Below are positions 1,035 through 3,817 of a DNA stretch of 4,282 nucleotides, piece after piece; positions within the stretch are counted from its first letter, which is position 1; the number at the start of each line of letters is the position of its first letter. Below the pieces are notes generated by a model. That model was not told the DNA's origin, did no database searches, and saw only the letters and a list, made by a program, of their open reading frames with translations. Source of the DNA: a virus (taxonomy: Duplodnaviria > Heunggongvirae > Uroviricota > Caudoviricetes); IMG/VR virus record IMGVR_UViG_2671180674_000006, positions 1 to 4,282 of that record; one strand, 5' to 3'. Position numbers and translations under genes: made by a program.

Positions 1035-1058
1035 CGCGCTATTTACGAAAATTTTCAG

Positions 1059-1078
1059 GGAACCATGTCCGGTTTCAC
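1059..1078 (-). repeat. cosB R-site candidate (R3-like), inverted orientation
   Basis: + strand GGAACCATGTCCGGTTTCAC; its reverse complement GTGAAACCGGACATGGTTCC carries the AACCGGACATG core shared with the two downstream copies. Confidence 0.55.
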
Positions 1079-1084
1079 TACTGG

Positions 1085-1118
1085 TTAACTATATGAAAAA
1101 TATAAAAACAAGCTTTTT
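1085..1118. promoter_or_regulatory. A-tract bend / IHF-like site between R-site candidates (I1-equivalent)
   Basis: Phased A5 (1096-1100), A5 (1104-1108) and T5 (1114-1118) tracts spaced 8-10 bp, positioned between the first and second R-site candidates as the IHF site I1 is in lambda cosB. Only a partial match to the IHF consensus WATCAANNNNTTR. Confidence 0.3.
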
Positions 1119-1135
1119 GTGAACCGGACATGTAC
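1119..1135 (+). repeat. cosB R-site candidate (R2-like), direct orientation
   Basis: GTGAACCGGACATGTAC; core AACCGGACATG at 1122-1132. Confidence 0.55.
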
Positions 1136-1149
1136 AAAAAACGAACATG

Positions 1150-1165
1150 CAAACCGGACATGAGC
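1150..1165 (+). repeat. cosB R-site candidate (R1-like), direct orientation
   Basis: CAAACCGGACATGAGC; core AACCGGACATG at 1152-1162. A degenerate partial copy GAACATG lies at 1143-1149. Confidence 0.55.
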
Positions 1166-1206
1166 GGTTTTCTGATTGTGAGGTGAGAGTTTTTGCGAGG
1201 TGAGTC

Positions 1207-1716
1207 GTGGCTACGCAGACTGAAGTTGCCAGGCATTTGAGTCTGACCGATCGCCAGCTTCGCAGATTGCAGAAATTGCCGGGTGCCCCGGTCTCGAATA
1301 AACGGGGGCATCATGACTTGGATGCCTGGCGTGATTTTTACATATCGTATCTGAGGAGAAGTAAAAATGATGTGTCTGATGGTGATAGCGAAGAAGACTA
1401 TGAAGAAAAATTACTTATCGCCAGATGGAAATTGACTGAAGAACAGGCAATAGCACAGCAATTAAAAAATCAGGTAACTGAAGGCAGACTTATTGATTCA
1501 GGGTTCTGCGTTTTCGCCCTCAGCAAACTGGCGATGGCATTGTCCAGTACGCTTGATTCCATTCCTTTATCCATGCAGCGACAGTTCCCGGATTTAACCC
1601 CGCGTCATATTGATTATCTGAAAACCCTTATCGCAAAGGGAGCGAATCAGTGTGCGCGGGCAGGGGATAAATTGCCGGAGTTACTCGATGAATATATCCG
1701 AACAACAGTTGAATAA
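1207..1716 (+). CDS. nu1: Terminase small subunit (lambda Nu1-like), GTG start
   Basis: GTG start at 1207 preceded by GAGGTGAG (1198-1205), stop TAA 1714-1716. The C-terminal half (…GFCVFALSKLAMALSSTLDSIPLSMQRQFPDLTPRHIDYLK…LPELLDEYI…) matches my recollection of lambda Nu1 (…AFCTFVLSRIAGEIASILDGLPLSVQRRFPELENRHVDFLK…IPGLLSEYIEQSG); the N-terminal third is divergent. Lies immediately downstream of cos and overlaps the start of the large subunit, as in lambda. Confidence 0.85.
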   Translation: MATQTEVARHLSLTDRQLRRLQKLPGAPVSNKRGHHDLDAWRDFYISYLRRSKNDVSDGDSEEDYEEKLLIARWKLTEEQAIAQQLKNQVTEGRLIDSGFCVFALSKLAMALSSTLDSIPLSMQRQFPDLTPRHIDYLKTLIAKGANQCARAGDKLPELLDEYIRTTVE

Positions 1717-3604
1717 TATGATGATCGCCGTCACAACCGCATTACAGCCACTAATAAGGGCATTGCCGGTCACGCCGGTTGAATGGGCTGATCAAAATTA
1801 TTATCTGCCTAAAGAATCGTCATACGGTGAAGGAGAGTGGAAAACCCTGCCGTTTCAGGTCGCCATTATGAACAGCATGGGGCACGACAGGATCCGCACT
1901 GTTAATCTGATTAAATCGGCGCGTGTGGGTTACACCAAAATGCTGCTGGGCGTGGTCGGGTATTTTATTGAGCATAAATCCCGTAACAGCCTGCTCTTCC
2001 AGCCGACAGATTCCGCAGCTGAAGATTTTATGAAAGCGCATGTGGAAGCAACGCTCCGGGATGTCCCCAGCCTTAAAGCGTTATCGCCATGGCTGGGCAG
2101 AAAACATCGGGACAACACACTCACCCTGAAGCGTTTTTCCTCCGGCGTGGGGTTCTGGTGCCTGGGGGGGGCCGCTGCTAAAAACTACCGTGAAAAATCT
2201 GTGGATGTGGTCTGCTATGACGAACTCTCCTCGTTTGAACCGGATGTGGAAAAAGAAGGCTCGCCGACGCTGCTTGGCGATAAACGTATCGAAGGCTCGG
2301 TATGGCCTAAATCCATACGCGGCTCAACGCCAAAAATTAAAGGCTCCTGCCAGATTGAGAAAGCGGCGAATGAATCTGCGCATTTCATGCGGTTTTATGT
2401 CCCTTGCCCTCATTGCGGGGAGGCCCAGTATCTGAAGTTTGGCGATGATGCGACGCCGTTTGGCCTGAAATGGGAGAAGGGTAAACCCGAAACGGTGTAT
2501 TACCTGTGTGAACATAATGGCTGTGTGATCCGCCAGTCGGAACTTGACCAGACCGACGGATGCTGGATTTGTGACAATACCGGGATGTGGACGCGTGACG
2601 GCCTGACATTTTACAGTGCCGGTGATGAGGAAATCCCGCCACCGCGCTCAATTTCGTACCACATCTGGACGGCATACAGCCCGTTCACCACCTGGGTACA
2701 GATTGTTTATGACTGGCTCGATGCACTGAAGGATCCGAATGGCGTCAAGACGTTCATTAACACCACGCTCGGGGAGCCCTATGAAGAGGCCGTGGCAGAA
2801 AAACTGAGCTTTGAGTTGTTGCTGGAAAAAGTCTGCCACTATGGCGCGCAGGTTCCCCTGCGGGTGGTTTACCTGACCGCAGGGATAGACTCCCAGAAAG
2901 ATCGCTATGAAATTTATGTTTGGGGCTGGGCTCCCGGCGAAGAAGCCTTTCTGATTGACAAGCAAATTATCATGGGGCGACCGGAGGACGAGGACACCCT
3001 TAAACGTGTTGATGCGGTGATCCGGAAAAAATACCGCCATGCTGACGGTACTGAAATTTCCATTTCCCGCGTCTGCTGGGATACCGGTGGTATCGACCAG
3101 GACATTGTGTATCAACGTTCCAGGAAACACGGCACTTTTTTTGTGCTTCCCATAAAAGGGGCATCGGTGTATGGCAAGCCGGTGATCACCATGCCCAAAA
3201 AGCGCAACCAGCGTGGTGTGTTTTTGTGTGAGGTGGGCTCCGATACCGTCAAGGAAATGCTGTACGCCCGTTTTGCCCTGCCGGTGGTTTCTGCCAGTGA
3301 AGCAGCCCCGTATATCTTCCGTTTTCCGGATAACCCGGACATTTTTTCGGAAGAAGAGGCGCGTCAAATCGTAGCGGAAGAACTGGTGGAAAAGGTGGTT
3401 AACGGCAGGGTGAAACTGCTGTGGGATAAAAAAGGGCGACGCAACGAAGCCCTCGACTGCCTGGTATATGCTTATGCCGCCCTGCGCGTTTCGGTACAGC
3501 GGTGGCAACTGGACCTTGAAGCGCTGGCGAGGGCACGAAGAGATGAGCAGGATGAGGATGATATGAGCATGGAAGAGATCGCGGCTGCACTGAGTGGAGG
3601 ATAA
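1688..3604 (+). CDS. A: Terminase large subunit (lambda gpA-like), ATPase/endonuclease
   Basis: Start chosen at ATG 1688 (MNISEQQL…, GGAG at 1677-1680) rather than the listed GTG 1652, because lambda gpA begins MNIS…. Long collinear similarity to lambda gpA as I recall it: VEWAD-NYYLPKES, KSARVGY-KMLLGV, FWCLGG-AAKNYREKSVDV, GSPT-LGDKRIEGSVWPKSIRGSTPK, HFMRF-V-CPHCGE-QYLKFGD, IWTAYSPFTTWVQIV, YLTAGIDSQ-DRYE--VWGW-PGEE, IPIKGASVYGKPV, WDKKGRRNEALDC. Stop TAA 3602-3604. Confidence 0.95.
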   Translation: MNISEQQLNNMMIAVTTALQPLIRALPVTPVEWADQNYYLPKESSYGEGEWKTLPFQVAIMNSMGHDRIRTVNLIKSARVGYTKMLLGVVGYFIEHKSRNSLLFQPTDSAAEDFMKAHVEATLRDVPSLKALSPWLGRKHRDNTLTLKRFSSGVGFWCLGGAAAKNYREKSVDVVCYDELSSFEPDVEKEGSPTLLGDKRIEGSVWPKSIRGSTPKIKGSCQIEKAANESAHFMRFYVPCPHCGEAQYLKFGDDATPFGLKWEKGKPETVYYLCEHNGCVIRQSELDQTDGCWICDNTGMWTRDGLTFYSAGDEEIPPPRSISYHIWTAYSPFTTWVQIVYDWLDALKDPNGVKTFINTTLGEPYEEAVAEKLSFELLLEKVCHYGAQVPLRVVYLTAGIDSQKDRYEIYVWGWAPGEEAFLIDKQIIMGRPEDEDTLKRVDAVIRKKYRHADGTEISISRVCWDTGGIDQDIVYQRSRKHGTFFVLPIKGASVYGKPVITMPKKRNQRGVFLCEVGSDTVKEMLYARFALPVVSASEAAPYIFRFPDNPDIFSEEEARQIVAEELVEKVVNGRVKLLWDKKGRRNEALDCLVYAYAALRVSVQRWQLDLEALARARRDEQDEDDMSMEEIAAALSGG

Positions 3605-3607
3605 AGG

Positions 3608-3817
3608 ATGGTTTATACGCATGAAATGCTTTGCGAGGCGCGTCGGGCATTACATGAACTGATGATCGGGCGTGCTGTGGTTTCTGTCGGCAGGAACGGA
3701 CGGCAGGTTCAGTATTCGCGTGCGACGATTGGTGAACTGCGGCAATACATTGAAGAGCTGGAGAGTGCGCTGGGCGTGTCCGGACGGCGTCGCGGTCCGG
3801 TGGGAGTGAGACTGTGA
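3608..3817 (+). CDS. W: Head-tail joining / head completion protein (lambda gpW-like)
   Basis: ATG 3608 with GGAGG at 3595-3599, 3 nt after the large-subunit stop; stop TGA 3815-3817. The 69-aa product MVYTHEMLCEARRALHELMIGRAVVSVGRNGRQVQYSRATIGELRQYIEELESALGVSGRRRGPVGVRL resembles lambda gpW as I recall it (…[27 protein letters not shown]…YIAELE…RRRGPAGFYV) and is in the expected position. Confidence 0.9.
   Translation: MVYTHEMLCEARRALHELMIGRAVVSVGRNGRQVQYSRATIGELRQYIEELESALGVSGRRRGPVGVRL

Follow-up and report, generated by a model that had tools for sequence, protein, structure and literature searches.

The window analysed here, a stretch of 4,282 bases, represents the late-region junction of an Escherichia coli lambda-like prophage, and its gene at positions 1207-1716 (+ strand) encodes a Nu1-family small terminase (TerS) of 169 residues. 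The sequence comparisons identify this protein as a genuine mosaic of a predicted DNA-binding N-terminal module and a putative TerL-binding C-terminal module. In our judgement it is very probably the TerS of an E. coli lambda-like cos prophage, assembled from an N-terminal head termed type A, a linker and a Nu1-like tail, and forming part of a co-adapted, swappable cassette. The N-domain and the repeats upstream of the gene appear, from the loci compared, to travel together as this cassette. The head, a predicted winged helix of the MATQ type, and its AACCGGA-core cosB sites may constitute a fourth packaging-specificity class, distinct from those of lambda, phage 21 and N15/Monarch, and this is the assignment towards which we lean.

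Gene organization of the window

The window comprises an ORF of no assigned function, the cos region (~980-1200), terS (1207-1716), terL (1691-3604), gpW (3608-3817) and the start of the portal gene, in this order. The terL gene (+ strand) encodes a gpA-family large terminase with Pfam GpA_ATPase and GpA_nuclease matches, which is 64% identical to lambda gpA; terS lies directly upstream of it and overlaps it by 26 nt, the same overlap as in lambda. The nearest complete genomes are those of E. coli from ruminants and patients, with ~93-95% identity to the window, and the nearest sequenced phages are PhiR12_1 to PhiR12_5, which match positions 1039-3510 at 81% nucleotide identity. At the left end, positions 1-661, including the ORF at 324-620 (PHROG 1935, unknown function), are 96.5% identical to the Stx phage phiP27. 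This match stops before the cos/terminase region and, at the sequence level, marks a further mosaic joint upstream of cos. In addition, a short ORF at 9-149 has a signal-peptide-like start and a lipobox-like LVGC motif (MKWALVAILVPFFLVGC...), and may represent the end of an Rz1/spanin-type lipoprotein gene from a lysis cassette.

The GTG at 1207 is the earliest possible start in the terS frame, and it is preceded by a ribosome-binding site, GAGGTGAG (1197-1204, + strand), read from the sequence and conserved in PhiR12_1. The same 510-nt gene is annotated in PhiR12_1, and other relatives have an ATG at the same codon. Differences within codons 2-53 fall mostly at third positions (36/54 against a Citrobacter relative), which indicates that the N-terminal part is translated and under purifying selection. 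The preliminary description had allowed that the true start might lie elsewhere; an upstream start is impossible, codon-position bias and conservation favour translation from 1207, and a mis-called start was thus rejected. The ORF is a real gene of the Nu1 family, and its product is already annotated as a small terminase in the databases. Just 5′ of the start, a direct repeat (TTGTGAGGTGAG / TTGCGAGGTGAG, 1176-1204, 17 bp apart) gives two ribosome-binding-site-like motifs, both of which are conserved in PhiR12_1.

The N-terminal domain is a predicted winged helix-turn-helix

Codons 1-55 (1207-1371, + strand) encode a predicted winged helix-turn-helix DNA-binding domain, called type A or the MATQ class, that begins with MATQxEVAxHL. 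AlphaFold models, built on shallow alignments of 17 and 27 sequences, predict three helices (residues 4-10, 15-22 and 38-55) and a loop or wing (residues 23-37), with pLDDT 78 for the domain model. By BLASTP, a PDB-sequence search and Pfam Phage_Nu1, residues 1-~60 have no similarity to lambda Nu1 or phage 21 gp1. A phmmer search of the window protein against the PDB gave chance matches only, with the lambda-type TerS N-domain entries 1J9I and 6HN7 absent; lambda Nu1 itself, used as a control, retrieves 1J9I, 6HN7_B, 7LW0 and related entries. The NCBIfam profile search of the window protein returned no match.

Profile comparison gave a different picture. Residues 1-167 match PHROG 57 at an E-value of 4.8e-52, the same PHROG that is matched by lambda Nu1 and phage 21 gp1, and residues 1-55 alone match it at 2e-9 over profile positions 12-69, with the lambda Nu1 and phage 21 gp1 N-domains mapping to positions 11-75. 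When a type A N-domain profile of 31 sequences was compared by hhalign with a lambda/21-type N-domain profile, the probability was 75% (E-value 2.5e-5), with residues 3-45 in register with Nu1 residues 4-50. The N15-type and lambda-type profiles are related at the same level, and type A against N15-type was not significant (3% probability). Foldseek placed lambda-type TerS DNA-binding domains among its best-ranked structural matches, at E-values that are not significant, and distant relatives of the N-domain give sub-threshold matches to HTH_17 and MerR. Altogether, the profiles and models place the N-domain, a predicted MerR-like winged helix-turn-helix, in one class with the DNA-binding domain of Nu1. 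The winged-helix fold raised in the preliminary description is supported by the modelled helices and wing and by the register with Nu1. Its statement that the N-terminal ~90 residues do not resemble Nu1 stands for pairwise sequence and falls for profile and fold, and the non-lambda part shrinks to ~60-72 residues.

An exhaustive representative search located the type A domain at the N-terminus of proteins of ~150-190 aa, whose C-terminus is Nu1-like or of another kind. In Pseudomonas phage Y8 and E. coli phage 705R4, the gene of the type A protein lies directly upstream of the large terminase gene. A foreign, non-TerS origin of the N-domain was considered and rejected, since the matches to residues 1-62 are the N-termini of small-terminase-sized proteins; in the loci with context checked, these matches adjoin a large terminase gene. 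A second large protein search, with residues 1-62 alone, found only truncated copies of the same protein.

Long tandem-repeat proteins in the representative search were set aside as score-accumulation artefacts. P0130 (584 aa) has ~11 tandem units of LGI.S..EY..RY.EIPGAP..P..Y.EW.SW.DLFGR with a weak match to N-domain residues 14-46, and P0118, P0122, P0137 and P0141, probable artefacts, resemble translated tandem repeats. Of the 105 type A terS genes in viral contigs (L020-L138), some 12 are truncated or frameshifted, e.g. VATQTEVARHLSLTDRQLRRLQKLFPHHYG... Such fragmentary terS genes fit many entries of 89-129 aa named ‘hypothetical protein’ as well as PHROG 7289 (‘unknown function’), which seems to have been built from N-terminal terS fragments of this kind.

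The linker and the Nu1-like C-terminal module

The head is joined to the tail by an acidic disordered linker, DVSDGDSEEDYEE, at codons 55-67 (1369-1407, + strand), where pLDDT drops below 50 at residues 56-60. The linker varies in sequence among relatives and is always acidic, and the equivalent segment of lambda Nu1 is acidic as well. The acidic stretch had been singled out as unusual; it is present as described, at residues 55-67, but it is an ordinary low-confidence linker located just before the right recombination joint.

Codons 73-167 (1423-1707, + strand) encode the Nu1-like helical part, for which roles in oligomerization and TerL binding are predicted by homology, from BLASTP and Pfam matches. 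BLASTP aligns only residues 73-167 to lambda Nu1 (residues 86-180; 44% identity over 95 residues, E-value 7e-28), and only residues 64-165 to phage 21 gp1 (38% identity). Pfam PF07471 Phage_Nu1 scores 72.5 bits against a cut-off of 30, with residues 49-150 covering profile positions 62-163 and the N-terminal third of the profile left unmatched. At 44% identity the lambda match is homologous but not close; the description of the C-terminal ~80 residues as closely matching lambda Nu1 was thus right in homology, too strong in closeness and too short in length, which is ~95-100 residues.

R-site repeats in the cos region

A cosQ-like heptamer, GGGTCCT (986-992, + strand), is identical in the lambda type, phage 21, PhiR12_1 and all sister loci; the role of cosQ is known from lambda (PMC4669245). 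Flank alignment with lambda and phage 21 places the putative nicking region cosN at 1011-1030 and the cohesive end at ~1015/1016-1026/1027 (GGTCGTAGGACG). This probable cohesive-end region (CGGGGGTCGTAGGACGCGC) is strongly unlike the lambda GGGCGGCGACCT, with cosQ and both flanks conserved. The same cosN variant occurs in the sister loci L011 and L017 and in phage 705R4 alongside different cosB types, and PhiR12_1 pairs the lambda cohesive end with a type A cosB, so that cosN type and cosB type assort independently. Beside cosN, the conserved block CGCTATTTACGAAAATTTTC (1037-1056, + strand) shares 19/20 bases with lambda bp 23-42 and coincides in part with the location of the annotated IHF site I2 of phage 21.

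Between cosN and terS lie three R sites, of which R3 and R2 form an inverted pair, as in the layout of a lambda-like complex cos. R3 (1064-1074, − strand) and R2 (1122-1132, + strand) are exact copies of AACCGGACATG, and a degenerate copy, AAACGAACATG (1139-1149, + strand), retains 9/11 bases. R1 (1152-1169) is a composite near-palindrome, AACCGGACATGAGCGGTT, in which an exact + copy (1152-1162) overlaps a 9/11 − copy (1159-1169); AACCGGACATGACCGGTT occupies the R1 position of PhiR12_1. The exact R1 copy is oriented as R2, whereas R1 of lambda is opposite to R2, and only the 9/11 copy has the lambda-like orientation. There are exactly three copies of AACCGGACATG in the window, and allowing up to two mismatches gives 7 matches against 1.25 expected, a number reached in 0/200 shuffles. 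The A/T-rich spacer between R3 and R2 holds a candidate IHF site at the I1 position, TAACTATATGAAA (1086-1098, + strand), with two mismatches to YAANNNNTTGATW; in a scan of the window for the IHF consensus this match was no better than chance. The relatives L011 and L013 have perfect IHF consensus matches at the same position.

The resemblance of these sites to those of phage 21 raises the question of whether the type A domain recognizes essentially the phage 21 site, in which case the cassette would belong, in diverged form, to the phage 21 specificity class. The cores of the R sites resemble each other (CCGGACATG in the window, CCGACATG in phage 21), the two loci agree in the R3(−)/R2(+) orientation with respect to the gene and in the R3-R2 spacing of 57 bp, and in the hhalign register Arg occupies the aligned recognition-helix position (R20 in the window, R21 in phage 21). 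These likenesses of core, orientation and helix Arg make type A look architecturally closest to cosB-21, with proteins that are not alignable by BLAST. However, the window site contains an additional base between CCG and ACATG as well as a conserved AA 5′ extension, and in phage 21 and lambda the alteration of just one or two residues of the helix, or of one or two base pairs, suffices to switch specificity (PMC4669245). We therefore consider membership of the phage 21 class unlikely.

Probable recombination joints delimit the cassette

The large protein search revealed three N-terminal types on similar C-termini: type A, the N15 gp1 type (MAFLLNKSDMASSIGISVQAF) and a lambda/21-like type (MKVNKKELADFFG). 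C-termini that are ~94% identical carry N15-type N-domains, and those that are 72-77% identical carry lambda-type ones. For example, P0042 has an N15-type head, yet is ~94% identical to the window protein from residue 76 to its end.

Nucleotide identity profiles have sharp breaks at ~nt 1060 and ~nt 1400-1420. L011, which has a variant type A head, is 90% identical to the window over cosN (1000-1060), 43-65% over 1060-1420 and 93-100% from ~1420 into terL. The pattern of PhiR12_1 is the opposite, with 56-60% over cosN, 79-97% over 1060-1420 and ~80-90% from ~1420 into terL, falling to 50-75% beyond ~nt 2800; its TerS is 87.6% identical to that of the window. L017, an N15-type locus, is 85% identical over cosN, 30-43% (unalignable) over 1060-1420 and 72-100% from ~1420 into terL. 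Because the breaks are sharp at the DNA level, the exchanged unit is placed at ~nt 1060-1400. It spans ~340 bp and contains the cosB repeats R3, R2 and R1 together with terS codons 1-~65; its left joint lies at the cosN-proximal block and its right joint in the DYEEKLLIARW-coding stretch, at ~nt 1395-1420.

An account without recombination would hold that the N-terminal part diverged faster by vertical descent and that the mosaic look is rate variation. DNA-binding domains and their sites can indeed co-evolve quickly, and the linker is variable, but identity to L011 jumps to its high level within a few tens of bases with PhiR12_1 running the other way, the three N-domain types look unrelated, and cosN and cosB types assort independently; vertical divergence is thus highly improbable. 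The preliminary description proposed a packaging-specificity swap of the lambda/phage 21 type. The mosaic and the matching repeats support this, but lambda fails as the partner, with 44% identity in the C-terminus and 64% in TerL. The C-terminal module is not that of lambda, and the sequence comparisons point to other enterobacterial prophages as the exchange partners.

Co-occurrence of the type A domain and its repeats

All of the loci examined with a type A N-domain (11/11) have AACCGGA-core sites upstream of terS. The nine enterobacterial ones among them all have the inverted R3/R2 pair, 57 bp from start to start (9/9), and the core also accompanies the type A domain in Pseudomonas phage Y8 and phage 705R4, where the flanks are otherwise unrelated. 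The N15-type locus L017 has GGTTGTTGT repeats, as in N15, and the lambda-type locus L019 has repeats of the AAAGAAAGGATCT type; GGTTGTTGT is not among the repeats found upstream of the window terS. In the reverse direction, a scan of viral contigs for the inverted R3/R2 pair identified at least 119 loci, all with a 69-bp span. Among the matches listed, a type A terS starts 60-107 nt downstream of the pair in 105/119 contigs; 13 of the others, again among the matches listed, lack any terminase and one runs off the contig. The co-occurrence of domain and repeat anticipated in the preliminary description is thus found in both directions, from protein to DNA and from DNA to protein. From this co-occurrence and by analogy, we infer DNA binding and packaging specificity for the type A domain.

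Further comparison related the recognition helix to the site. The Arg20 helix (RQLRRLQK) goes with AACCGGAC / AACCGGACAT, and AACCGGAA(A/G)T accompanies helices with Asp or Asn at residue 20 (RWLRDLQK, RQLRNLQK and the Y8 and 705R4 helices). Helix residue 20 thus tracks the eighth site base, which suggests an Arg-to-G:C contact; we treat this contact as a hypothesis, since the covariation may reflect one or two evolutionary events. Adjacent as they are, the repeats and the domain would be co-inherited anyway, and it could be argued that another factor (a host factor, a regulator or the large subunit) binds the repeats and that the N-domain has another role, but this is scarcely credible given that the repeats lie exactly where the lambda and phage 21 TerS sites lie and with the same spacing, that the core persists beside the domain in hosts as distant as those of Y8 and 705R4, that site and recognition-helix residues change together, and that satellite-like elements retain the repeats but lack the gene, the pattern expected of a cis-acting site for a helper TerS.

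Satellite-like elements with cos but no terminase

The 13 contigs that have a full cos with no terminase after it are L059, L020, L021, L027, L028, L035, L046, L062, L065, L075, L095, L106 and L133. They have cosQ and GGGCGGCGACCT, followed by the type A R3, spacer, R2 and R1, and their identity to the PhiR12_1 cos ends right after R1. L059 (1-11730; cos at ~9500-9660) encodes an integrase, an Ash-family protein, a D5-type primase and SSB, in addition to capsid and decoration proteins that are like lambda gpE and gpD, respectively. In gene content it is similar to EcCICFT073-type islands, and it has no sequence match to Rpp structures. According to published descriptions, Gram-negative PICIs lack I1, R2 and R1 and rely on Rpp; by comparison, the cos-only elements may exploit type A helpers through a copy of the entire cosB, which would be a second route of satellite piracy beside Rpp.

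Proposed mechanism and significance

In lambda-type TerS, R3 and R2 are bound and brought together by an IHF bend at I1 (PMC9026076, PMC4669245). The two halves of TerS are separable, as demonstrated by a viable lambda/21 chimera (PMC9026076, PMC4669245). The domain roles of TerS (PMC9026076), the architecture of cosB and the specificity classes of lambda, 21 and N15/Monarch (PMC4669245) have been described. The sequence features for the lambda/21 mechanism are all present in the window, except that the IHF site is a weak match here and perfect in relatives.

We propose that residues 1-55 would bind DNA, that residues 55-67 would serve as a flexible linker and that residues ~68-169 would oligomerize and hold the gpA-type large subunit. 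By analogy with lambda and phage 21, dimers of the N-domain would contact the AACCGGACATG sites R3 and R2 by placing helix 15-22 in their major groove. These sites, inverted and 57 bp apart, flank the A/T-rich spacer, which is probably bent by IHF, and the composite R1 would be bound too. TerL would thereby be positioned on the neighbouring cosN, to nick it and initiate packaging. The repeats and codons 1-~65 (~nt 1060-1400) would constitute one co-adapted specificity cassette, which homologous recombination would swap among prophages at two conserved joints, namely the cosN-proximal block CGCTATTTAYGAAAATTTTC and the DYEEKLLIARW-coding stretch. The window would then combine a cassette of the PhiR12_1 kind with the cosQ/cosN, the terS 3′ part and the terL of another prophage lineage.

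Of 5426 complete E. coli genomes, 1166 have the type A module, at a median copy number of two. Our literature search found no description of the type A class or its repeat, which, coverage being incomplete, is not proof of absence; it found no paper on the PhiR12 phages and nothing relevant on cosB mosaicism. If type A is a fourth class, it would occur in roughly one in five complete E. coli genomes and would move as a cassette of approximately 340 bp, with sub-specificities of its own set by helix residue 20 against site base 8. EcCICFT073-like satellites without Rpp would then exploit it via a copy of the whole complex cosB rather than via Rpp redirection. Packaging specificity sets which DNA is loaded into capsids, and therefore which co-resident prophages, satellites and cosmids are mobilized. 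E. coli often carries two copies of the module beside other lambdoid prophages, and an extra orthogonal TerS/cosB pair would help to explain how cross-packaging is avoided or exploited. Moreover, the cassette boundaries and the Arg20/base-8 covariation offer testable rules for re-targeting lambda-type terminases.

Comparison with known systems

The closest annotated relatives are the TerS proteins of PhiR12_1 to PhiR12_5 (PV340549-54, ‘terminase subunit Nu1’), which are 87.6% identical to the window protein and share its recognition helix and the same R3-I1-R2-R1 set with AACCGGACATG. PhiR12_1 differs in its lambda cohesive end and in its terS 3′ part and terL, at ~80-90% nucleotide identity.

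Lambda gpNu1 (1J9I; 6HN7 chain B) has the same gene position, the same 26-nt terL overlap and the same three-part layout; its C-terminal 95 residues are homologous, and the predicted N-domain of the window protein has the same winged-helix topology. In the cosB of lambda, too, there are three sites, two of which (R3 and R2) are inverted relative to each other and enclose an A/T-rich spacer. By contrast, residues 1-72 of the window protein have no pairwise similarity to lambda gpNu1, the N-domain lies outside the Pfam Nu1 coverage, the R sites are AACCGGACATG instead of the lambda CGTTTCC type, the probable cohesive end is not GGGCGGCGACCT and the exact R1 copy takes the R2 orientation. The predicted specificity is thus not of the lambda class.

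Phage 21 gp1 and cosB-21 are the paradigm of an N-terminal TerS module and R sites that change together. The phage 21 N-domain is plainly lambda-like, whereas that of the window has no pairwise similarity to it, and the window site, with its extra base and AA extension, has a core (CCGGACATG) that is similar but not identical to CCGACATG; these differences would set it outside the phage 21 class. N15 gp1 and Monarch-type TerS also have a divergent class of N-domain on the same C-terminal module (94% identity in sister prophages), but with GGTTGTTGT repeats and an N-domain that has no significant hhalign match to type A (3% probability), which separates type A from that class. Compared to Rpp of Gram-negative PICIs (RppC, 6HN7 chain A), the window protein has a full Nu1 C-terminus and its own terL. 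Rpp lacks the TerL-binding tail and acts by heterodimerizing with the helper TerS (PMC9026076).

The present analysis adds exact cassette boundaries, a two-way co-occurrence test, a candidate specificity determinant and cos-only satellite-like elements. Modular TerS proteins and mosaic lambdoid genomes are textbook knowledge, and the window TerS with its cosB is a further member of a well-known kind of system, not a new mechanism.
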